A stretch of DNA of 64,000 bases, from positions 39,816 through 103,815 of the forward strand of contig JAAXWW010000001.1 of the NCBI GenBank assembly GCA_013334765.1. Reading direction: 5' to 3'. The notes under the pieces were generated by a model that ran no database searches, was not told where the DNA came from, and saw nothing but the letters and a program-made list of their open reading frames with translations. Made by a program: the position numbers and the translations under genes. Source of the stretch: Candidatus Moraniibacteriota bacterium (GTDB lineage Bacteria > Patescibacteriota > Minisyncoccia > Moranbacterales > UBA2206). Shown here one piece after another: positions 9,494 to 40,143 of the stretch; position 1 is the stretch's first letter, and each line of letters opens with the position of its first letter.

Positions 9494-10792
9494 TTGAGTC
9501 TTATTATGATAAAGAAACTGACAGGATCGAAAGTCGAAATAACAAGGGAAATCCCGAGCGCTGTTTGGGAGAAATATATCGCGTCAGCTGTCAGCGACGC
9601 AGCCAGCGAATTCAAGTTCCAGGGGTTCCGCCCAGGGAAAGCTCCGAGGCATCTTGTGGAGCAGAAGGTCGGCAAGGACATCATCCTCAACAATGCCGCT
9701 GAAAAAGCTATCAGGAAAGACTATGTCGATTATGTCGTCGCTGAAAAGATGGACGTGATCGGAATGCCGGAAGTGAAGATCGTGAAGCTTACTGAAGGAG
9801 AGCCAATGACATATGAAGCACGGGTTGCGGTTATGCCGGAAATAAAGATCGATGCCAAATATAAGGACGAAGTGAAGAAGGTCAACGCTGAATTTTCCGG
9901 AAAGACTTTCGAAGCTGACGAAAAGGAAGTGGAGCTTGAGCTGGAAAGGCTTGCCAACAGCAGGGCGAAGCTGGTGACTGTCATGCGCGAGGCAAAAAAT
10001 GAAGACGCGGTCGAGATCGATTTCTCTGTCTTGGTCGGCGGCGTTCCTATTGAAGGAGGAACCAGCAAGAACCACGCGTTAGTTATCGGCAAAGGAGTTT
10101 TCATTCCTGGATTCGAAGAGAACCTGATCGGCATGAAAGAAGGGGATGAGAAAGAATTCGAACTCAGCTTTCCGAAAGACTATCACAAAGAAGATCTCAA
10201 GGGGAAACTCGCTACTTTCAAAGTGAAGATGAATATGGTTCAGGAGCGCGAGATTCCGAAAGTCGATGACGAGTTCGCCAAATCGCTCGGCAATTTCGAG
10301 AATCTTGAGGCGATCAAGAAGAATATGCGGGAAGGCATGGCGCATGAGAACGAGCATCGCATCAAAGAGGAAAGGAATGCCAAATATATCGAAGCCATGA
10401 TTGCCAATTTCAAAGGCGAGCTGCCGGAGACCATGATTTCCGAGGAGCTCAAGAAAATGATGCACGAATTCGAGCATCAAGTGGGCTCGATGGGCATGAC
10501 TATGGATGAATATCTTGCGCGCATCGGAAAGAAGAAATCGGACATGGAAAAAGACTGGAAGCCGCAGGCGGAGAAGAGGGTGAAATCAGCCTTGGCTCTT
10601 CGTGAAATCTCCAAGGAAGAATCGATCGAAGTCCCTCATGAAGAGATCGAAGCCGAGATGAATAAGACACTTCAATATTACAAGAGCGTCAAGAACGTCG
10701 AGAAGGACATCGATCTGGAAAGGCTCTATAATTACACGAAAGTGACTCTTGAAAACGACAAGGTGTTCGAAATGCTCGAGAAACTGAAATAG
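9494..10792 (+). CDS. tig: trigger factor
   Basis: GFRPGKAP ribosome-binding signature, central PPIase region, 432 aa. Confidence 0.85.
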   Translation: MSLIMIKKLTGSKVEITREIPSAVWEKYIASAVSDAASEFKFQGFRPGKAPRHLVEQKVGKDIILNNAAEKAIRKDYVDYVVAEKMDVIGMPEVKIVKLTEGEPMTYEARVAVMPEIKIDAKYKDEVKKVNAEFSGKTFEADEKEVELELERLANSRAKLVTVMREAKNEDAVEIDFSVLVGGVPIEGGTSKNHALVIGKGVFIPGFEENLIGMKEGDEKEFELSFPKDYHKEDLKGKLATFKVKMNMVQEREIPKVDDEFAKSLGNFENLEAIKKNMREGMAHENEHRIKEERNAKYIEAMIANFKGELPETMISEELKKMMHEFEHQVGSMGMTMDEYLARIGKKKSDMEKDWKPQAEKRVKSALALREISKEESIEVPHEEIEAEMNKTLQYYKSVKNVEKDIDLERLYNYTKVTLENDKVFEMLEKLK

Positions 10793-15681: not shown

Positions 15682-15756
15682 GCGGGTGTCGTATAGTGGC
15701 TATTATATCAGCCTTCCAAGCTGAGGAGGGGGGTTCGATTCCCCCTACCCGCTCCA
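15682..15756 (+). tRNA. tRNA-Gly (anticodon TCC), CCA encoded
   Basis: Acceptor GCGGGTG/TACCCGC. Anticodon stem TCAGC/GCTGA with loop CTTCCAA. T-arm GGGGG-TTCGATT-CCCCC. Discriminator T followed by CCA. Confidence 0.75.
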
Positions 15757-17510
15757 AGGACAATTTCTTGCCCCGAAACACCTAGAACAGATTGAAGAAT
15801 ATCTTGGGGCAACTTCAATTTAATATGAAGACGGAAAGGGATCATTTGATCCTTTTTTCGTTTCCCAGCGATGATGTCGGCATTCTCTACTGGTCGAGAA
15901 TATACAACGATTTCATCAATGAGAGAATGCAGTAGCGTGTAAGTATCAGCTCTGTTTTCTGCTATGTTGTCGAGAGTATGGATATATTTTTGAGAAAACA
16001 GCTCCAGAGTCTTTTCATAACCCTGCGAAAGTGAATTTTCGGAAATTCGGCGGTCAATTTCTTCAATATCTTTTTTATATTTTATTTCAACATCATTCAA
16101 TTCCTTATATCGCCTGCCAAGTTCTGTTCCATCTATTACGCTCAAAGAGTGTTGCTCTCTCAATCTCTCCTTACGATTTGGAAGAGCATTTATCAATTTA
16201 GCCATTCCTTCACGTTGCATGCTTAACTGCTTCAATGCGACTCTTGATGATTGCAGTTTTCTTTGATGATTATAGGTTGCAAGAGGATTTGCCAAAAGCC
16301 TTTTACTGAAGCCTACTATATACTCTTCTATTTCTTTAGCAGGCAGTGGTATAGTATGACAAGTTGTTGAATACTTGCTAGGGTTTTTCTTTCCGCACTT
16401 ATATGAATATGTGAATTTATTACTGCCTTTTTTAAGTTCCTTTCTATCGCCAACCCAGTGCATCATTCCGGTTTTTTCTTCAGGGTTGTGGCATGCGTCG
16501 CAAGTCAAAAGGCCACTAAGAAGATAGATGTGTCCACTTTTTGTTTTTTTCTTTTCGTGTTTGGAAGACTTCAACAAACGTTGCGTTTTTTCAAATGTTA
16601 AAGGGTCGATAATTATTGGGAATTGAAATTCTCCAAGTTTCCATTCTTCTTTTGAAAGTTGTTTGCCTTTTTTCTTCTTATCATAATAGTATTTTCCGAT
16701 ATAAATTTCGTCTTGCAAAATCAATCTTATTCTTTCGGGTCTCCAAAAATTGTGCGGATTTTTCTTTTTTGTTTCACCGCTTTTTTTCTTGTGCAAAATT
16801 GCAGAGGCTTCTGGCGAAGGGTTTCCTGCGGAAGTCAGATGAGCTGCAATTTCATATGCACTTTTTTTCTCATTCAAAAACATATTGAAAATAAGCCTTA
16901 CAATAACTGCTTCCTCTTCAAGAATTTCCAAGTGCTTGTCCTTATTTTTAATGTATCCAAATACTGCAAACGAACCCATTGGGATCCCACTTTTTATTGC
17001 TTGGTTTCTGCCATCCTGAGTGCGTTGCTTTATGGTCTCAACTTCAAGCTCTGCTATTATTCCGACAATGCCAAAAATTGCCTTACCAAAAGGTGTTGTG
17101 GTGTCTATGCTTTCATTTGCTGAAATAAATTTAACACCAATTTCATCAAAAAAATCAACGATATTCAAAAGGATTTTTAGTCTTCTGGCAAAACGATCTA
17201 TTTTATATACTGCTACAACATCAAATGGCCTGTTGTCTTTCGGTGCCATTGTTAAATCCTCCATGAGCTGTGCAAAGGCTGGTCTTTCTTCGATGGGAAT
17301 TGTTCCGCTAACTCCATCGTCAATATAGATATGCTTTTCTCCTGCAAGGCTCCAAACTCCACTGCCATCTTCAAGTTTACCTTTTGACTTAATAAGATTC
17401 AAAAGGGCTTCTTTTTGCATATCTAAGCCATATTTTTCAGCCTGTTCATCGGTTGATACTCTAATATAAAGAGCGACTCTTAGGCTTTCTGGATTTGTAT
17501 TTGTTTGCAT
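15708..17510 (-). CDS. large serine recombinase (phage-type serine integrase)
   Basis: N-terminal resolvase catalytic domain (RVALYIRVSTDEQ.., catalytic Ser context). A 600-aa protein with a Cys-containing recombinase/zinc-ribbon region. The 3' end overlaps tRNA-Gly by about 49 bp. Confidence 0.85.
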   Translation of the reverse strand: MQTNTNPESLRVALYIRVSTDEQAEKYGLDMQKEALLNLIKSKGKLEDGSGVWSLAGEKHIYIDDGVSGTIPIEERPAFAQLMEDLTMAPKDNRPFDVVAVYKIDRFARRLKILLNIVDFFDEIGVKFISANESIDTTTPFGKAIFGIVGIIAELEVETIKQRTQDGRNQAIKSGIPMGSFAVFGYIKNKDKHLEILEEEAVIVRLIFNMFLNEKKSAYEIAAHLTSAGNPSPEASAILHKKKSGETKKKNPHNFWRPERIRLILQDEIYIGKYYYDKKKKGKQLSKEEWKLGEFQFPIIIDPLTFEKTQRLLKSSKHEKKKTKSGHIYLLSGLLTCDACHNPEEKTGMMHWVGDRKELKKGSNKFTYSYKCGKKNPSKYSTTCHTIPLPAKEIEEYIVGFSKRLLANPLATYNHQRKLQSSRVALKQLSMQREGMAKLINALPNRKERLREQHSLSVIDGTELGRRYKELNDVEIKYKKDIEEIDRRISENSLSQGYEKTLELFSQKYIHTLDNIAENRADTYTLLHSLIDEIVVYSRPVENADIIAGKRKKDQMIPFRLHIKLKLPQDILQSVLGVSGQEIVLGAGRGNRTPLLSLEG

Positions 17511-17750
17511 AAAGTTATAACAAGTAAAAGGTACGAATAGGTATAAGTAACGGAGGGAGGCATTTTTTGTATTTATAGCTTAACCGCCTTTGCCTAAGAA
17601 ATTGAAAAATGAATATAAAAAACAGCCAAAAAGACTGACGGGATAAAGACTAAAATTTTATAGTTTTTCCAAAACATTCAATTACAACTAAAATATAAAC
17701 CTACTTTTAAAGTAAGACTTATCTTAGATAAATGCAAGACCCCACAGATC

Positions 17751-18374
17751 TTAATACTTTATGATTTTGTTAATGGCAGCAGAAGAATCATCAACACCTT
17801 TTAAATAAATTGAAAATTGATGAAATCCAGTGTTGGCATTTTTAATATATTCTCCCACAAAGTGCTTGCCGACATAAGCAGAATCCGCATTCGTAGCATT
17901 AGCAATATTTGGCTGTATCGTTGCTGATTTTTTGTCCGTATGAATAAAAATAAAAGCACTGCGTTCATTTTGCATATCATCTTTGATTGTTTGCCCCAAA
18001 GCTGTCATATCGTCAAAATTGAGATATTTAGGATCAATGACTATCCTTTCGCCAGTTCCGCCGTCGGGAATGCTCCATTTTTGAACCACTTCGTAAGGAA
18101 TTTTTTTGCTGGCCTGGGTTATAGGATTGCTGCTTTTATTATTGTTTGCTTGTGGCCGATTGGGTTGGCTTTTTGTTGCAGCTATAATTGAAGATATTAT
18201 TGGAATCCCAATCAAAATAACCAAAATTAGGACAAGCCAAGGCAGACAACCTTTTTTCTTTTTTATTACCACTTCCATTGGCTGCTGATTTTTTCCGGAA
18301 AGATCGCTTCCGCAATGTTTGCATTTGATTGCTTCGTCCTGAATTTCTTCAGAACAAAAAGAACACTTTTTCAT
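17751..18374 (-). CDS. zinc-ribbon membrane protein (hypothetical)
   Basis: N-terminal CxxC-x12-CxxC ribbon (CSFCSEE..CKHCGSD), one TM helix and a 140-aa extracytoplasmic domain. Confidence 0.5.
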   Translation of the reverse strand: MKKCSFCSEEIQDEAIKCKHCGSDLSGKNQQPMEVVIKKKKGCLPWLVLILVILIGIPIISSIIAATKSQPNRPQANNNKSSNPITQASKKIPYEVVQKWSIPDGGTGERIVIDPKYLNFDDMTALGQTIKDDMQNERSAFIFIHTDKKSATIQPNIANATNADSAYVGKHFVGEYIKNANTGFHQFSIYLKGVDDSSAAINKIIKY

Positions 18375-18933
18375 AGACTTTTCGTTTAATTTTTAAAGTG
18401 CTGGTCGGGATACACAAAACCCCGTGCCAGCTAGGTCTTGCGACCCTATATCCGTTTCCAGATATAGCCCAATCACGAGTTGCTGAACGCGGGGTTCAGT
18501 GTCGTGATTGGGTCTTGTATGCCATACCGTAAAATTTTACTTCTACGGGTTAGGCAAATTAAATTGTAACCTTATTATGCCTTATAACTGCCGAAAAGGC
18601 AAAATTTGGCTATTTTTTGACTGCTAAGAAAGGAAATGCTCTAATATGGGCAATCCTACCAAATTACTGATTAGCTCCCTTAAGGCCTAGTCAGGGAGTC
18701 TAGGAGTGAAAAACAGACGGTAATTTTTATCCAAACAAATAGTTTATTTTTGTCCGCTCGTGTCCGTTTATTTTTTTCCAAATCTGTCCCTCTTGATCCG
18801 TTTTTATTTTATACTAAATTAGGCTTATCTTGGCTCAACTCAGGGATTATTAGCACATTTTACTAAATTGAATTATTTTACTGTCCAAATGAACAAAGGA
18901 ACATAAAAAAATGATGTAAAACTGGATAAAAAT

Positions 18934-18980
18934 AGGGCGGAAGTTTTTTCTGACAACTCTGTCAAATTGACTTCCGCCCT
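18934..18980 (-). terminator. intrinsic terminator for the 19024..19467 gene (nested hairpin)
   Basis: On the - strand the 11-bp stem AGGGCGGAAGT/ACTTCCGCCCT, with an inner 5-bp stem TGACA/TGTCA, is followed by ATTTTTAT. It lies 44 nt downstream of the stop. Confidence 0.55.
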
Positions 18981-19023
18981 ATAATATTTACAAATATGAT
19001 GTCTGCTATACTGGCAACATCGT

Positions 19024-19467
19024 TTAGTCTTTGGATTTATCAAATAGAAAGTGGAGCAGCTGTTCATTTTCCTCCTCCATTGAACTGATTGCTACACTAA
19101 GGGGCTGTCTTTTTGGACCAAGATCTATAACAGGATTAACTGAACCATAAAAATAAAAACCTATATTATTATCAGACTTTTTCTTGCTAGCATCCTTTCT
19201 AAAATAAACCTCAAGACCTTCTTCTTCAATTTTGTGTTTTTTAGCAAAATTATCGAATGTCTTAATTATAAAATCAGAAAATTCCAGTTGAGTTATGCCC
19301 CCTTCTAAACTTATAACAAATCTTCTTCTAGTCTTAGGTTTAAGATTATCAGATGAAAAATTCACCAGTTCTTCGTTAGAACTATATTTTTCAATAGCTT
19401 CACTGGTATCATTTGGTTTTTTATTATCTAAATGCTTACTATTTCGACTGTGTTGCGTTTTTGCCAT
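19024..19467 (-). CDS. hypothetical protein
   Basis: 147-aa ORF, K/E-rich, no recognised motif. Confidence 0.45.
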   Translation of the reverse strand: MAKTQHSRNSKHLDNKKPNDTSEAIEKYSSNEELVNFSSDNLKPKTRRRFVISLEGGITQLEFSDFIIKTFDNFAKKHKIEEEGLEVYFRKDASKKKSDNNIGFYFYGSVNPVIDLGPKRQPLSVAISSMEEENEQLLHFLFDKSKD

Positions 19468-19543
19468 AAAAGTGACGATTTTATGCGATTTGATTATTAA
19501 CGCCTATACGGTGAATTTCTTTGTCTATATTGTAGCATATCAA

Positions 19544-19598
19544 GATTAAATTGTATTTTTCATTGATATTTATATTGTGGGGTAGAAATTTGCCGATC
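19544..19598. repeat. ~55-bp direct repeat, copy 1 (second copy at 21447..21500)
   Basis: AAGATTAAATTGTATTTTTCATTGATATTTATATTGTGGGGTAGAAATTTGCCG versus AAGACTAAATTGTATTTTTCATTGATATT-ATATTTCGGGGTAGGAATTTGCCG. Confidence 0.7.
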
Positions 19599-19761
19599 CA
19601 AAAATTTCTCATTTTGCAACCTAACGAAGCCTAACTTTTTTAATATAAAAATTCTATTTTAATTGTATTATGTCATACAACGTCAAGATATTATTGGAAT
19701 GTTGATTTTTTAGTATAGCTGTGCTTTATTAGATTAAGGTCTTGGTAAACACATTATAATA

Positions 19762-20550
19762 ATGTATAATAATAATATGGCAAAAGCGAAAAAAGAAACA
19801 AGAAAGAAATCTTTTAAATACGGAAAAAACTACCTTTCTAAGGTAATTTTGAGGTTGGATTTTGATAAAATAGAATTGGGATCACTCGAAAATTTTCATA
19901 ATGATGAGTTAAAGAAATTCTTTCCATTATTTGCTGAGAAAAAAGATCTTGAAATTGGTCTTTCGGGAGATTTAGTTTCTAATAAAATAAGTCAGACCAG
20001 AAATGAATCCGTATCCTATGTCTTTGAAAACTCGGAGAAAACGAAACGCTTTAGAGTTGGAGAAAGATATGTTTTTATTGAATATGACAAGTATAGTAAT
20101 TCCGAAGAATTATACAAAGATATAAAAGTAGTTATTGATAGATTTATTTTAACTTTTGGTGTAAAAACAATAAACAGGTTGGGATTAAGGTATATAAATG
20201 AGATAAAATTGAAAGAACCGAATGCTTTAGATTGGAAAAATTACATAAATAAAGATCTGCTAGGTGGTTTAAATTTTTCCAAAAATGAAATTCTTTCCCG
20301 TTCTTTAAGTCAGCTCGTTTTTAAAAAAGACAAGGGTGATATGTCTTTTACCTATGGAGTATTTAATAAAGAATTTCCAAGCGAGATAAACATTAAAGAG
20401 TTCATACTTGATTTTGATTGCCATTCAATCTTGCCTTTTGAGCTTTTAGAAGAAAACATTCTAAATAGAATAGAACTATATCATTCTCATATAGAGGACT
20501 TATTTGAAAAGTGTATAACGCAGAAATTTCGTGATTTTTTAAATAAATAA
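19762..20550 (+). CDS. hypothetical protein (island cargo)
   Basis: 262-aa ORF with a basic N-terminus and an internal GLRYIN segment. I half-recall this signature from an uncharacterised protein family but cannot confirm it. Confidence 0.5.
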   Translation: MYNNNMAKAKKETRKKSFKYGKNYLSKVILRLDFDKIELGSLENFHNDELKKFFPLFAEKKDLEIGLSGDLVSNKISQTRNESVSYVFENSEKTKRFRVGERYVFIEYDKYSNSEELYKDIKVVIDRFILTFGVKTINRLGLRYINEIKLKEPNALDWKNYINKDLLGGLNFSKNEILSRSLSQLVFKKDKGDMSFTYGVFNKEFPSEINIKEFILDFDCHSILPFELLEENILNRIELYHSHIEDLFEKCITQKFRDFLNK

Positions 20551-20563
20551 CTAGCTAGCTATT

Positions 20564-20761
20564 ATGTTAGGAAAATCATCTTCTGAAAATTACAGAGATA
20601 TCTTTGAAGATAAGGCTGATGAATACTCCAAAAAAGATAATTCTGAAACAAGGGATTTTTCTGGAACCATAAATTTATTTACATCTGGAACAAACAAAGA
20701 GAGGTATGTAATTAGAAAGGCTACTGTTGAAAAACATCTTTATGTTCGAAAGTCAAATTAA
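20564..20761 (+). CDS. small ORF (65 aa), overlaps the start of the next ORF in another frame; possibly the N-terminal part of a frameshifted gene
   Basis: ORF track only. It overlaps 20727..21374 by 35 nt (20727-20761), or 20 nt if the downstream gene starts at 20742. Confidence 0.3.
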   Translation: MLGKSSSENYRDIFEDKADEYSKKDNSETRDFSGTINLFTSGTNKERYVIRKATVEKHLYVRKSN

Positions 20762-21374
20762 GAAAAAGTATCAGATTTGTGGCATAAGAACTTGCCAGGG
20801 TGACATTCTTAGGGATGTCACTATTGCATTTGGGCTAGAATTGAGTGATAGCAGTGAGGGCGAAAGTGAAATTGAATTAGAACATAGGTATTATAACTAT
20901 GCAGTAGTATTGAGTCAGGACTGTGATTTAAGTAGTGATTATAATGAGAGAAATAAAAATGCAGAAATCAAGGAAAAAATAAAAAATAACGAACTGGAAG
21001 AAGAAAAAGCGATTATAAGCAATGATAAGTATTTGCCTGCTATTTTAATATGCCCAGCTTATTTATTATCTGATTTTGTAAACGGATCGCATATAACTTC
21101 TTGGAGTATGAATAGTGAGCTAAAAAACGAAAATAATCAAAAAAAGTTAAAAAGTAATAATGAATTTAAACGATATCATTACATAAGAGGCGATAGTGAT
21201 CTTGGGATACCCGAGTTAGTATTGGATTTCAAGCACTTTATGTCGGTGCCAAGGGATACTTTATATAAAATACATAATCAAGTTTATATAGCCACAATAA
21301 GCGAATTGTTCCGAGAGGAGTTGTCTCAGCGATTTTCAAACTATATTTCAAGAATAGGCTTACCAGAAATTTGA
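20727..21374 (+). CDS. hypothetical protein (island cargo)
   Basis: 215-aa ORF; alternative start at 20742 (MFESQ..). No recognised domain. Confidence 0.45.
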   Translation: MKNIFMFESQIKKKYQICGIRTCQGDILRDVTIAFGLELSDSSEGESEIELEHRYYNYAVVLSQDCDLSSDYNERNKNAEIKEKIKNNELEEEKAIISNDKYLPAILICPAYLLSDFVNGSHITSWSMNSELKNENNQKKLKSNNEFKRYHYIRGDSDLGIPELVLDFKHFMSVPRDTLYKIHNQVYIATISELFREELSQRFSNYISRIGLPEI

Positions 21375-21446
21375 GAGCTTGTTAGTTTCTGATTAAGTTA
21401 TTTGTGCCTATTCGCTGAATCTTCTTGTCTAAATCACAACAAATAA

Positions 21447-21500
21447 AGACTAAATTGTATTTTTCATTGATATTATATTTCGGGGTAGGAATTTGCCGCC
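21447..21500. repeat. ~55-bp direct repeat, copy 2
   Basis: See copy 1. It lies immediately upstream of the long palindrome. Confidence 0.7.
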
Positions 21501-21549
21501 CTCAGAAAACAAAAAACAGCCCTTAACGGGCTGTTTTTTGTTTTCTGAG
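21501..21549. terminator. 22-bp perfect inverted repeat / bidirectional terminator-like hairpin upstream of the R-M cassette
   Basis: CTCAGAAAACAAAAAACAGCCC-ttaac-GGGCTGTTTTTTGTTTTCTGAG. A degenerate direct copy lies at 23790..23830. Confidence 0.6.
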
Positions 21550-21748
21550 CGGCATCTATCTATGGCTGGGATACGGGGTCAAAATATGAGAAATAAAAAT
21601 GCGTTGGGTAATTCTGGCGGCAAAAGTCTCAATGATTGTAGGTTAGTTGAAAGATGCCTTTAATTGTGAATTTTTTGATTTTGATGATAAGATAAACATA
21701 GGAAATCATTATAAAAAGCATAGCTTATCCCTTTAGAAGAAAGATCAT

Positions 21749-22585
21749 ATGGCTAAAAAAACTCAATCAAAAAGATTAACGAATCAGCATAAAAAATCTC
21801 AAGGCGTGGTTGGTATATTTGGAAATGAAGCAAGGTCGCATGATATAACAGTTGGTAAGATTTCACATCTTGTAACCGAACAGCTTGAAAAGGAATTTCC
21901 TCGATTATCTTTTAGATATAGAACGGGTATAAAAAAGAAAGAAATAAACGAAGCCTTAAAGAAAGTTGATTCAGAATTAGGGCAAACCATTTTTGTATTA
22001 AATTCAAGCATTAAGCCTGATGGAGGAATAATAGAAGTGAAAGACGATAATGGTATTTGGAGAGTAGTACTCGTAACGGAAGCTAAACATCAAGGAAAAG
22101 ACATTGAAAATATCCAAAAAGGAAATCTGGTTGGCAAGAATAACGATCAAGATTTGATGGCTGCTGGCAATGCAATAGAAAGATCGCATAAAAACATATC
22201 AGAAATTGCCAACTTTATGCTGCATGAATCCCATTTTCCTTACATCTTATTTCTGGAAGGATCAAATTTTATTACTGAAACCATTTCAATTAAAAGACCT
22301 GACGGAAGAGCAGTTACCCTTGATTATAACTCAGGCATGCTGAATAGATTAGACAGATTGACTTCTGCGAATTATGGAATGCCAATTAATACCAATTTAT
22401 GCAAAAATAAATTTGTTAAGCATAAAGATAAAACAATTATGCTTCAAGCAGCTTCGATATATACACAAGGCAATGGAGGAAAATGGGATAAAAAAGAAAT
22501 GTTCGACATTATGGTGGAAACTTCAAAAGTCTCTCTTCAGGTACTGGGAAGTGAAATATTTAAACAAATAACCAAGCGCAAATAA
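21749..22585 (+). CDS. ecoRIR: type II restriction endonuclease, EcoRI family (predicted GAATTC specificity)
   Basis: 278 aa, alignable from memory along its whole length with R.EcoRI: SQGVVGIFG, LSFRYR, EINEALKK, SSIKPDGGIIEVKDD, EAKHQGKD (the PD..D/ExK active site), DQDLMAAGNAIERSHKNISEIANFML, SHFPY.LFLEGSNF, NSG.LNRLDRLT.ANYGMPIN, IMLQAASIYTQG. Confidence 0.85.
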   Translation: MAKKTQSKRLTNQHKKSQGVVGIFGNEARSHDITVGKISHLVTEQLEKEFPRLSFRYRTGIKKKEINEALKKVDSELGQTIFVLNSSIKPDGGIIEVKDDNGIWRVVLVTEAKHQGKDIENIQKGNLVGKNNDQDLMAAGNAIERSHKNISEIANFMLHESHFPYILFLEGSNFITETISIKRPDGRAVTLDYNSGMLNRLDRLTSANYGMPINTNLCKNKFVKHKDKTIMLQAASIYTQGNGGKWDKKEMFDIMVETSKVSLQVLGSEIFKQITKRK

Positions 22586-22622
22586 TCAAAACCAAGAGAT
22601 TTATTAATTTTTTAAATATAAT

Positions 22623-23723
22623 TTGATAATGGCAAGGAACGCAACAAACAAATTATTGCAAAAAGCTAAAGAGTCAAAGAGTGACGAGTTTTACACTCAA
22701 CTTTCAGATATAGAAAGCGAATTGCAATATTATAAAGATCATTTTAAAGGCAAGGTGGTTTTTTGTAATTGTGATGATCCTGGAACTAGCAACTTTTTTA
22801 AGTATTTTGCCTCAAACTTCAAAGAATTAGGACTTAAAAAATTAATATCTGCTTGTTATAGAAGACAAGAAAGAAATTTATTCAATACTAAAGAATATGA
22901 AAGCGGTTTTTTTTATGAATATTCAGGTGCTAAAGTCGAAAAAACTAAGCCAAGTTTAAATGAGGTTGTTCATTTTAAAGGGGACGGGGATTTCCGTAGC
23001 GCTGAAAGCATTGAGCTGCTGAAACGATCCGATATAGTTGTCACTAATCCGCCATTTTCATTATTCAGGGAATACGTAGAACAATTAATTAGATACGATA
23101 AGAAATTTTTGGTAATCGGTAATATTAATGCTATTACCTATAAAGAAATTTTTAAATTAATCAAGGGAAACAAAGCGTGGTTGGGAATAAATCTAGGTAG
23201 GGGAATTTCAGGTTTTATTGTGCCGGAACATTATGAGCTTTACGGTACAGAAGCTCGTATTGATAATCTTGGGAATAGGGTAGTTTCACCGAATAATTGT
23301 TTATGGCTAACAAATCTAGACACCCCCAAAAGGCATGAGGACATGACTCTTGCAAAAAGCTATTTTGGAAACGAAATTGAGTATCCTCGTTACGATAACT
23401 ATGATGGAATCAATGTGAATAAAACAAAAGACATTCCTTCGGATTATTCAGGTGTTATGGGTGTGCCTATAACCTTTTTGCATAAATACAATCCAGAACA
23501 GTTTGAAATAATCAAATTCAGAAAAGGAAATGATGAAAAGGATTTATCAATAAATGGAAAATGTCCATATTTTAGGATTCTAATCAAAAATAAGCGGATA
23601 CAGGAAAGTGAAAAAAAGAATCGCCGAGGTGAAAGGGAAATTGAGAGGTATCTTAAAAATCCTATTGAAATTACTGTAAGAGGTAATGCTTATGATTTTG
23701 AAGGTCCCTTATTGAGTTTGTAG
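22623..23723 (+). CDS. ecoRIM: N6-adenine DNA methyltransferase, M.EcoRI-like
   Basis: The N-terminus MARNATNKLL.KAK.SKSDEFYTQ, CNCDDP, SNFFKYFA.NFK.LGLKKLIS, DIVVTNPPFSLFREY (the NPPF motif), GRG.SGFIVPEHYELYGTEARID and KCPYFRILIKNKR all match my recollection of M.EcoRI. The probable start is the ATG at 22629. The gene lies about 40 bp downstream of R, on the same strand as in the EcoRI system. Confidence 0.8.
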   Translation: MIMARNATNKLLQKAKESKSDEFYTQLSDIESELQYYKDHFKGKVVFCNCDDPGTSNFFKYFASNFKELGLKKLISACYRRQERNLFNTKEYESGFFYEYSGAKVEKTKPSLNEVVHFKGDGDFRSAESIELLKRSDIVVTNPPFSLFREYVEQLIRYDKKFLVIGNINAITYKEIFKLIKGNKAWLGINLGRGISGFIVPEHYELYGTEARIDNLGNRVVSPNNCLWLTNLDTPKRHEDMTLAKSYFGNEIEYPRYDNYDGINVNKTKDIPSDYSGVMGVPITFLHKYNPEQFEIIKFRKGNDEKDLSINGKCPYFRILIKNKRIQESEKKNRRGEREIERYLKNPIEITVRGNAYDFEGPLLSL

Positions 23724-23798
23724 TCTGTCGGACAGCTTTTGTTGAAGAGGTTGGGTTCTAGTTTACCCTAACCGCATTAACTAACCAGCTCACAAAAC

Positions 23799-23827
23799 AA
23801 AAAACAGTCCTTTGAGGGCTGTTTTTC
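23799..23827 (+). terminator. intrinsic terminator after the methyltransferase gene; degenerate copy of the 21501 palindrome
   Basis: AAAAACAGTCC-tttga-GGGCTGTTTTT with one G-U pair. The left flank CTCACAAAACAAAAAACAG matches CTCAGAAAACAAAAAACAG. Confidence 0.6.
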
Positions 23828-24259: not shown

Positions 24260-24868
24260 ATGGAAAAAAACACAAAAAAACAGAAAATAAGGCTGTCCCT
24301 GCCGGATATCGATTCGCCAAGGTTGCGGGATTTTTTTCTCGGTTTCCTGATCGCTCTTTTCCTGCTTTATGACATCCTGTTTTTCATGCTCGGAAGATCG
24401 ATGCAGCGAGAGGATTACGGCTTGAGATCAGGAGCGAGTCCGGTTCTCTTTGAGAACAAGGAATACAAGAATCTAGTCAGCGGACATCCTATCGAAAGGA
24501 TGATCCCATATATTTCCAGGCAGAACGGGCAAGTGGCCTCTTTCATAATCGCGATCGCCAAGAAAGAAAGCGACTGGGGAAAATATGCTCCGCAAAAAAA
24601 CGGGCGCGACTGCTATAACTACTGGGGATACCGCGGGTCATATAATCAGACCGATTCAGGGTATAGCTGTTTCGATTCCCCGCGGCAGGCGGTGGCCGTT
24701 ATCGGAAGCCGGATCGAGGATCTTATCGCGCAGGATATCGACACGCCCAAGGAAATGATCGTCTGGAAATGCGGTTCGAACTGTCGCGGGCATAGCCGCT
24801 ACGATGTCAGGAAATGGATCAGCGATGTCGATCTGTATGTCGCCAAGGTCGATAACGGCAATTCATAA
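24260..24868 (+). CDS. hypothetical membrane-anchored protein, possibly lysozyme-like/lytic transglycosylase-like
   Basis: N-terminal TM helix. AIAKKESDWGKY.. is reminiscent of the catalytic Glu region of a lysozyme-like fold. This is a weak call. Confidence 0.4.
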   Translation: MEKNTKKQKIRLSLPDIDSPRLRDFFLGFLIALFLLYDILFFMLGRSMQREDYGLRSGASPVLFENKEYKNLVSGHPIERMIPYISRQNGQVASFIIAIAKKESDWGKYAPQKNGRDCYNYWGYRGSYNQTDSGYSCFDSPRQAVAVIGSRIEDLIAQDIDTPKEMIVWKCGSNCRGHSRYDVRKWISDVDLYVAKVDNGNS

Positions 24869-39084: not shown

Positions 39085-40143
39085 ATGGCAAACATAAAAA
39101 ACAAAGAGATGGACAAGAAAGTGGACAACGTTGTTTCCGAGATCCGTGAAAAATTCGGAGAGGGAATAATCATGAAGCTGGGGGATGTGAAGAAGGTCGA
39201 TGTGGAGTCGATTCCGACCGGATCGATTTCGCTTGATTTGGCGTTGGGAATCGGCGGAATCCCAAGGGGTCGCGCGATCGAAATATATGGACCGGAATCT
39301 TCCGGGAAAACAACGCTTACTCTTCACTTGATTGCCAATCTGCAGAAAACCGGTGGCGTGGCTGCCTTTGTGGATGCGGAGCATGCTCTCGATCCTGAAT
39401 ATGCCAGGAAAATAGGAGTGAATATCAATGACCTTCTAATTTCTCAGCCGGATTATGGCGAGCAGGCATTGGATGTGGTCGATGCTCTTGCGTCTTCCGG
39501 TCAGGTCGGATTGATCGTGGTCGACTCTGTGGCTGCTTTGGTTCCGAAAGCGGAAATCGAAGGCGATATGGGAGATCATCATGTCGGCAGGCAGGCGCGT
39601 CTTATGTCGCAGGCTCTCAGGAAGATAACGCCGACTCTTTCAAAAACGAATTGCACGGTTATCTTTATCAATCAGATAAGGATGAAAATCGGAGTGATGT
39701 TCGGAAACCCTGAGACGACAACCGGAGGAGAAGCGCTCAAATTCTATTCATCCGTCCGCATCGAAGTGCGGCGAAGCGCGCAGATCAAGAAAGGCGAGGA
39801 TATCGTCGGGAACCGTACCAAGATCAAGGTAGTGAAGAACAAGGTGGCGCCGCCTTTCAAAACGACTGAATTCGATATCATGTATAACGAAGGGATTTCT
39901 TCCGAAGGGGATGTTCTCGACACGGGAGTGAAATACGAAGTGGTCACCAAGAAGGGCAATTCCTATTCTTTCGGAGAGGAGAAACTGGGCGTCGGTCGCG
40001 AAGCGGCCAAGGCCTATCTCAAAGGACAAAAAGGAAAGGTGGATGAGATTGCCAAAAAGATCATGGAAAAGACCAAAGAGATAGAGGCCGGCGAGATGCT
40101 TCCGGAGGCATCTGAGGAGCCAGCGGAAGCCAAGAAAAAATAG
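39085..40143 (+). CDS. recA: recombinase RecA
   Basis: Walker [10 protein letters not shown], the L1/L2 loops, [32 protein letters not shown]; 352 aa. Confidence 0.95.

Follow-up and report, generated by a model that had tools for sequence, protein, structure and literature searches.

An EcoRI-family restriction-modification gene pair on a tRNA-Gly island of a Candidatus Moranbacteria genome

Two adjacent genes at positions 21749–23723 of a 64,000-nucleotide stretch of DNA (positions 39,816 to 103,815, forward strand, of contig JAAXWW010000001.1, assembly GCA_013334765.1; hereafter the window, in whose coordinates all positions are given) raise the question of whether they constitute an intact restriction-modification (R-M) system of the EcoRI family, as originally predicted from the sequence alone, and of how such a system came to stand in the chromosome of a bacterium of the candidate phyla radiation (CPR). 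The CPR-like nature of the genome, part of the same prediction, is borne out by GenBank, where the exact endonuclease (R) and methyltransferase (M) sequences are deposited from a Candidatus Moranbacteria metagenome-assembled genome (MAG), on a 306,238-bp contig which, within the window, also carries core genes such as rpoB/rpoC, RNase Y and iPGM, among others. The sequence comparisons described below make it very probable that the pair is an intact EcoRI-family type IIP R-M system, carried on a low-GC island at a tRNA-Gly gene.

The gene pair and its predicted activity

The first gene (R; 21749–22585, + strand) encodes a 278-aa protein, classed here as an EcoRI-family type IIP restriction endonuclease, whose exact sequence is GenBank NTU66359.1, named 'restriction endonuclease'. 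This protein matches the whole of the Pfam profile PF02963 (positions 1–257 of 257, E=1.4e-148, 493 bits, cutoff 22) and the PADLOC model REase_II (E=1e-138), and a phmmer search of the PDB retrieves the R.EcoRI chains 1ckq (E=4e-134) and 2oxv. The E. coli plasmid copy NZ_CP068038 was taken as the EcoRI reference pair (WP_001565219 for R, WP_002670781 for M), and the global alignment of R to WP_001565219, annotated as 'type-2 restriction enzyme EcoRI', is ungapped with 202 identical residues of 277 (72.9%), in agreement with the full-length likeness originally proposed. The catalytic residues P90-D91 and E111-A112-K113 are the same as in EcoRI and in the same positions, and the strings quoted in favor of that likeness, PDGGIIEVKDD...EAKHQGKD and DQDLMAAGNAIERSHKNISEIANFML, are both present in R. 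The residues M137–A142 (the extended chain), E144, R145, R200 and R203, whose roles in reading GAATTC are known from EcoRI–DNA crystal structures, are all identical to those of EcoRI.

The second gene (M, + strand) consists of a core of 326 residues (22629–23606), assigned to the EcoRI-family N6-adenine methyltransferases, followed by a lineage-specific C-terminal extension of 38 codons (23607–23720) and the stop codon (to 23723), and its product is GenBank NTU66360.1. It matches the Pfam family PF13651, 'EcoRI_methylase' (E=3.9e-131, 438 bits, cutoff 26.4), and the PADLOC model MTase_II (E=8e-153), and global alignment to the M.EcoRI-family protein WP_002670781 is ungapped with 236 of 326 residues identical (72.4%); motif IV, NPPF, corresponds to N140-P141-P142-F143 and is invariant across 25 aligned homologues. 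The predicted match to M.EcoRI is confirmed by this identity, and the strings cited for it (MARNATNKLL..., NPPF and KCPYFRILIKNKR) are all found in M, whereas the 366-aa length given with them is not: it counted from a TTG at 22623, while the ATG at 22629 is the start in all homologues and in the GenBank record (MARNATNK...), which gives 364 aa. The label 'adenosine deaminase' of NTU66360.1 is a misannotation of an EcoRI-family methyltransferase.

The pair is complete, with full-length Pfam matches for both proteins, and the alignment identities of 72.9% and 72.4%, far from negligible, place both in the EcoRI family. Gene order and spacing were also correctly anticipated, since R precedes M on the same strand as in EcoRI and the spacer, expected at about 40 bp, measures 43 nt (22586–22628, + strand). 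The low GC content likewise resembles that of the classic system, 0.328 in the cassette versus 0.324 in the E. coli EcoRI cassette, host DNA having about 0.47. The cassette is a tight 1.85-kb unit of two full-length open reading frames (ORFs) with neither frameshift nor internal stop. The ratios of nonsynonymous to synonymous substitution rates (dN/dS, Nei-Gojobori) between the window genes and their relatives are 0.058–0.117 for R (nine relatives) and 0.052–0.105 for M (eight relatives), obtained from comparisons with a finite dS of 0.5–1.6, with the comparison of M to the ninth (L020) left out for its saturated dS. These low values indicate that R and M are both under strong purifying selection along the lineages separating them from their relatives, and are therefore evidence against a decaying nuclease.

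In the mode of action proposed for the pair, the 278-aa endonuclease, probably as a homodimer, would cut G^AATTC in a Mg2+-dependent manner, the 364-aa methyltransferase would produce GA(m6A)TTC and so protect the 29 GAATTC sites of the window and the remaining chromosome, and unmethylated incoming DNA, for instance that of a phage, would be cleaved by R. The specificity for GAATTC is strongly argued for by the sequence comparisons, from which we also infer enzymatic activity and a function in defense. All 29 sites are located outside the island, and those listed in the original prediction as examples from the flanking core genes actually lie at 1130, 2095, 7494, 9091, 9608, 10154 and 10466, within 4 nt of the positions given there; given that GAATTC is this frequent in the host genes, its argument that an active nuclease would need a functional methylase holds.

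Several points weigh against an intact and functioning system in this genome. The host DNA of the window shows no depletion of GAATTC, with 29 sites observed versus 22–43 expected under Markov models of orders 1–4 (observed/expected about 0.7–1.3 for orders 1–3, the expectation falling at higher order); of the 6-bp palindromes in this DNA, it belongs to the over-represented and not to the avoided ones. In addition, dN/dS reflects past selection along the lineage and not present activity, a scan for consensus promoters remained at background (13 found versus 10.1 expected), and the tRNA-side left junction of the island is supported by the MAG contig alone, the contig of an independent Logan assembly (SRR11449211) ending inside tRNA-Gly. 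Long residence of an active enzyme often, but not always, leads to depletion of its site, and the missing avoidance is equally compatible with a recent arrival and with full protection by the methylase. Within the island there is no GAATTC site, versus about 2.8–4.1 expected.

These points could also be read as signs of a silent or recently inactivated system, for example through a substitution outside the known motifs or through lack of transcription, in which only the methylase or neither gene would matter; such a state would be in line with the lack of avoidance in the host, with the absence of a convincing promoter in the scan, and with the 27% of R residues that differ from EcoRI. It is nevertheless improbable, because both ORFs are full length, all of the catalytic and recognition residues checked are intact, the dN/dS of R is about 0.09, as for M, against relatives at dS 0.5–1.0, and the differences between R and EcoRI are mostly common to a large clade of equally conserved homologues. 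An intact R-M system remains the favored reading.

The second alternative concerns the target, as enzymes of the EcoRI family might recognize another site, for instance CAATTG, as MunI does, or a relaxed AATT core; MunI has the same fold and reads a related site, and sequence cannot give specificity with certainty. This is very improbable in view of the identity of every recognition residue mentioned above, and R is 73% identical to EcoRI, whereas RsrI from Cereibacter sphaeroides, at only 50% identity to R.EcoRI, still cuts G^AATTC (PMC5896346). In the phmmer search of the PDB (E<=0.01), the only chains found for R were those of EcoRI, with no MunI chain, and nothing was found for M, which is, for its part, 72% identical to M.EcoRI. 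Since MunI and M.RsrI, which we take to be PDB entries, are missing from these matches, the pair is of the EcoRI type rather than of the MunI or RsrI type; M.RsrI belongs to a different methyltransferase class.

Apart from the functional question, a stretch of 25 kb without GAATTC (10467–35835) is centered on the island and comprises 17.3 kb of host DNA, for which 4.8–13.7 sites are expected (Markov orders 3 to 1), and two island-free relatives, L091 and L094, have five sites each in the parts homologous to it. The idea that this local depletion marks donor DNA co-transferred with the island was rejected as unproven, the divergence (about 82–88%) being uniform across position 10466 and the loss of all five sites of the relatives at the observed divergence having p ~0.09; the test being post hoc and the divergence uniform, the stretch is probably due to chance.

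Spread of the cassette and the methyltransferase tail

A scan of one genome per species yielded 164 relatives, and the identities given here are those of the best 80, across which R is 75–90% identical to that of the window. The nearest relatives are found in CPR MAGs (loci L004–L010 and L076; R 87–90%, M 80–85% and DNA 83–87% identical), and the CPR carriers include Kaiser-, Parcu-, Staskawicz-, Levy-, Woese-, Peregrini- and Peribacteria; in a neighbor-joining tree, built without bootstrap, the CPR relatives group in a single clade that also contains the window and two MAGs labeled as Gammaproteobacteria. Dozens more relatives (75–86%) occur in Bacteroidota, Microcystis and other cyanobacteria, Desulfobacterota, Spirochaetota, Firmicutes and a few archaeal MAGs. 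R precedes M in nearly all of the loci, separated by a spacer of 1–43 nt in the 80 relatives and of 29 nt in EcoRI, and the GC content of the cassette stays at 0.29–0.33 whatever the flanks. The homology to the window at the DNA level, detected in 80+ loci, begins at 21732–21764, mostly at 21747–21749, which is the start codon of R, and ends at 23590–23622, where the tail of M begins, in the loci having both genes; no other protein or DNA of the island was found beside the cassette in 85 related loci. The cassette thus travels between very different hosts.

Some particular arrangements were observed among these relatives. The loci L011, L045, L032, L062 and L078 comprise the two Gammaproteobacteria-labeled MAGs of the CPR clade, archaeal MAGs and a Lachnospiraceae; in the last of these (L078), M lies upstream of R, unlike in all the others. 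The archaeal MAGs (Woesearchaeota, Methanocaldococcaceae) carry the cassette on contigs of 2–2.7 kb, and mis-binning is possible because these contigs are so short. In four loci, a gene for a 221-aa Abi_alpha protein (PF14337) follows 9 nt after M (L084, 4092–4757; L085, 3513–4178; L087, 2221–2886; L088, 1640–2305), the M of these Abi_alpha-carrying cassettes being 81–82% identical to the window M over the full alignment, and R, M and Abi_alpha possibly form a three-gene unit in those relatives. A lost third gene of this kind in the window was considered, as the relatives P0003/P0004 carry it, and rejected: tblastn detected no remnant, and its best match (E=0.21) lies inside the R gene and is therefore spurious.

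The tail of M was described in the original prediction as a novel, basic extension of about 40 aa; the extension exists, with 38 aa, but it is neither basic nor exceptional. In the 41-aa stretch from I324, made up of I324–E326 and the extension, 8 K/R are matched by 8 D/E, which leaves a net charge of zero, and non-conserved tails of 0–55 aa are common, being present in most of the environmental homologues. The length of M among close homologues ranges from 318 to 387 aa, and the sequence after ...KNKRIQ is hypervariable. Local alignment of the window tail with 19 other tails (2000 shuffles each) reached p=0.018 at best, which loses significance once multiple testing is taken into account, and at the DNA level no convincing homology to L084, L086 or L087 extends beyond about 23622. 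An AlphaFold2 model of M, built from 24 close homologues, has a mean predicted local distance difference test score (pLDDT) of 51, falling below 50 in the tail, and since the model is poor throughout, it is uninformative about the tail.

According to these data, the tail most likely results from read-through into flanking DNA specific to the lineage, under weak constraint or none: the conserved cassette would end near the canonical stop of M, and each lineage would read its own flank until the next stop, the tails being hypervariable because the homology of the cassette ceases within a few codons around that position. A functional new module, involved in binding DNA or a partner or in regulation, might be proposed instead, as the frame remains open for 38 codons in AT-rich DNA and tails of 20–45 aa occur in many relatives and are shared within some sub-clades. 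That proposal is hard to sustain, given the lack of significant similarity to other tails and of DNA homology past 23622, a tail length which varies from 0 to about 55 aa, the tail-less M.EcoRI, which works, the zero net charge, and the tail confidence below 50, though in an entirely poor model; a small chance is left to it, and neutral read-through is preferred.

Compared with the EcoRI system of E. coli plasmids (R, PDB 1ERI/1CKQ; M, WP_002670781), the window pair shares the Pfam families, an identical NPPF motif, the R-then-M order, the short spacer and a GC content of about 0.32–0.33, and no gene for a C protein was seen adjoining it, likewise as in EcoRI. In contrast, it resides in the chromosome of a CPR bacterium, on an island at tRNA-Gly, whereas EcoRI is carried by a small mobilizable plasmid; its M has the 38-aa extra tail, and the DNA is about 70% identical. 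In ecoRIR, internal promoters for M and an antisense RNA have reportedly been described by the Kobayashi laboratory. With the EcoRI-like cassettes of other CPR/Patescibacteria, the gene order is common, but the flanks are wholly unrelated, no other island gene is shared, and the tails of M vary in both length and sequence. LraI from Lactococcus raffinolactis, characterized experimentally, is described as another EcoRI-like system of this family; its GAATTC cleavage and protection have been demonstrated (PMC5896346) and, unlike the window pair, it is plasmid-borne and found in a Firmicute. The behavior of the cassette agrees with the literature, in which EcoRI isoschizomers are described as unusually similar and of common origin; EcoRI-like systems show high identity across phyla, and 526 putative EcoRI-like entries were present in REBASE in 2018 (PMC5896346).

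The island and its integration site

The cassette is located on a low-GC genomic island of about 8.04 kb (15755–23791), the left edge of which is marked by tRNA-Gly(UCC) (15682–15756, + strand; identified with ARAGORN and Rfam), the integration target, with the same tRNA present in the relatives. Between about 15800 and 23750, the GC content is 0.27–0.40 versus about 0.47 in the host. Next to the tRNA gene, a large serine recombinase of about 600 aa (15708–17510, − strand), likely the integrase of the island, contains resolvase, recombinase and zinc-ribbon domains (PF00239, PF07508, PF13408), and it matches NCBIfam models of the XisF/Ccr type below the threshold. At the right end of the island, 23743–23775 (+ strand) forms a degenerate, attR-like duplicate of the 3' half of tRNA-Gly, found by local alignment to 15722–15752 (26 of 33 aligned columns, shuffle p~0.005), and GCTC is present at both junctions.

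The empty site was searched for with the host protein to the right of the island (24260–24868), which led to the relatives L091 and L094, with 83–84% identity, on contigs of 13–18 kb. Their gene order matches that of the window (NusA, DHH, trigger factor, ClpP, iPGM, RNase Y, HU, tRNA-Pro, tRNA-Gly), and tRNA-Gly is followed by an ORF of 60 aa (L091) or 33 aa (L094), a 202-aa protein and an amidase, with no island. Homology to the window by blastn extends up to 15754, the end of tRNA-Gly, and resumes at 23800, which delimits the island to approximately 15755–23791; in the two relatives, just 8 nt separate tRNA-Gly from the terminator. The empty site in two related genomes, together with the composition, the tRNA target and the recombinase, gives good support to the earlier suggestion that the pair was acquired horizontally as island cargo. 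In the proposed process, the large serine recombinase of the island would itself integrate it at the 3' end of tRNA-Gly(UCC), and we infer that this enzyme did the integrating. Regarding the tRNA itself, its encoded CCA end (…GCTCCA) is supplied by the first bases of the island (15755–15756), and in the island-free relatives (L091, 9543–9545) the corresponding sequence is …GCTCAGAG, with no encoded CCA.

The Logan assembly, made independently from the same sample, reproduces the succession from the recombinase gene through R-M to the host genes on the right. Its contig (L003, SRR11449211_62513) starts inside tRNA-Gly, at about position 15698 and at the left junction of the island, and this break could mean that the population contains variants with and without the island, or merely that a repeat is present. 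The MAG source, the sharp change of GC with respect to the flanks and this break could point to an assembly or contamination artefact (laboratory E. coli, a vector or a mis-joined contig), an explanation that is hardly credible considering that the DNA is just 70–72% identical to the E. coli and Klebsiella EcoRI plasmids, the closest relatives are in other CPR MAGs, the Logan assembly runs from the end of the recombinase gene via R-M into the right-hand host genes, and the island has att-like ends at a tRNA gene and a clean empty site in relatives.

The pair had already been deposited in GenBank and belongs to a well-known and very widespread family, so that the finding is correct but ordinary; a literature search for EcoRI-like systems in CPR yielded no paper. 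CPR lineages are largely devoid of CRISPR and are thought to depend on R-M. The modest value of the locus resides in the correction of the 'adenosine deaminase' label of M, in a clean and well-bounded case of a defense cassette brought into a CPR bacterium by a tRNA island, for which the empty site serves as control, and in the sharp limits, conserved across phyla, of the 1.85-kb EcoRI cassette, from the start codon of R to near the canonical stop of M.

Repeats and other cargo of the island

About 200 nt upstream of R, a perfect hairpin with a 22-bp stem (21501–21549; inverted repeat I3, direct repeat D4) duplicates the host terminator found after tRNA-Gly, and the right copy of this 38-nt repeat (23789–23826, + strand), identified in the repeat search, forms both the junction between island and host and the host terminator itself, homology to the relatives starting at 23800. 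The two copies are identical at 33 of 38 positions (shuffle p~0) and can be aligned with the empty-site sequence of L091 and L094. The bracketing 38-nt direct repeats suggest that R-M was added to the island separately.

Another direct repeat, of about 110 nt (D1), has its copies at 19487–19595 and 21391–21497 (+ strand), each preceding a + strand cargo module; the copies are about 78% identical when extended, with a core of 84 nt at 77%, and share the exact 24-mer TAAATTGTATTTTTCATTGATATT, which is found nowhere else in the window. This repeat could be a duplicated promoter/leader or an att-like module boundary. There is no Rfam match at these positions, and the exact 24-mer is absent from viral contigs; a 22-mer of the repeat gave two metagenome matches, with similarity confined to 23–39 nt, and the repeat is therefore not a widespread element. 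Its possible origin as a degenerate copy of tRNA-Gly was rejected, since the alignments were not significant (p=0.11–0.28).

The second cargo module (19762–21374, + strand) encodes a TIGR04255-family protein (262 aa, E=2.3e-27) and ORFs of 65 and 215 aa; its proteins have no Pfam or PADLOC match, and it could be an uncharacterized defense or addiction module. The distribution of the repeats raises the possibility, rather unlikely in our estimation, that the island is an array formed by site-specific accretion at tRNA-Gly, with cargo modules devoid of a recombinase stacked after a single large serine recombinase. The R-M module (about 21498–23791) would be bracketed by attB-side copies, namely the hairpin and the terminator, with the copy of the tRNA 3' half just before the latter, and the TIGR04255 module is bounded by the two copies of the 110-nt repeat; the basis of the model is a few short repeats, and the 110-nt repeat was not found elsewhere. 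If this model were true, CPR bacteria would own a small cassette-capture platform shuffling defense modules such as the EcoRI cassette, which would help to explain the CPR-specific clade of the latter. Site-specific accretion with recombinase-less elements (CIMEs) is said to have been described in work on ICESt1 and ICESt3 of Streptococcus thermophilus. The island resembles tRNA-targeting serine-recombinase islands and CIMEs in its insertion at the 3' end of a tRNA gene, in a second copy of the tRNA 3' half at its opposite end, in the recombinase beside the tRNA and in an internal att-like copy bracketing the R-M module; as a difference, its 8 kb contain no conjugation or phage genes.

Finally, a full-length match to the LOOT RNA family (Rfam RF03000; 18433–18556, − strand; 79.9 bits versus a gathering threshold of 46.4, E=2e-13) sits, also within the island, between a zinc-ribbon ORF (17751–18374, − strand) and an ORF of 147 aa (19024–19467, − strand).

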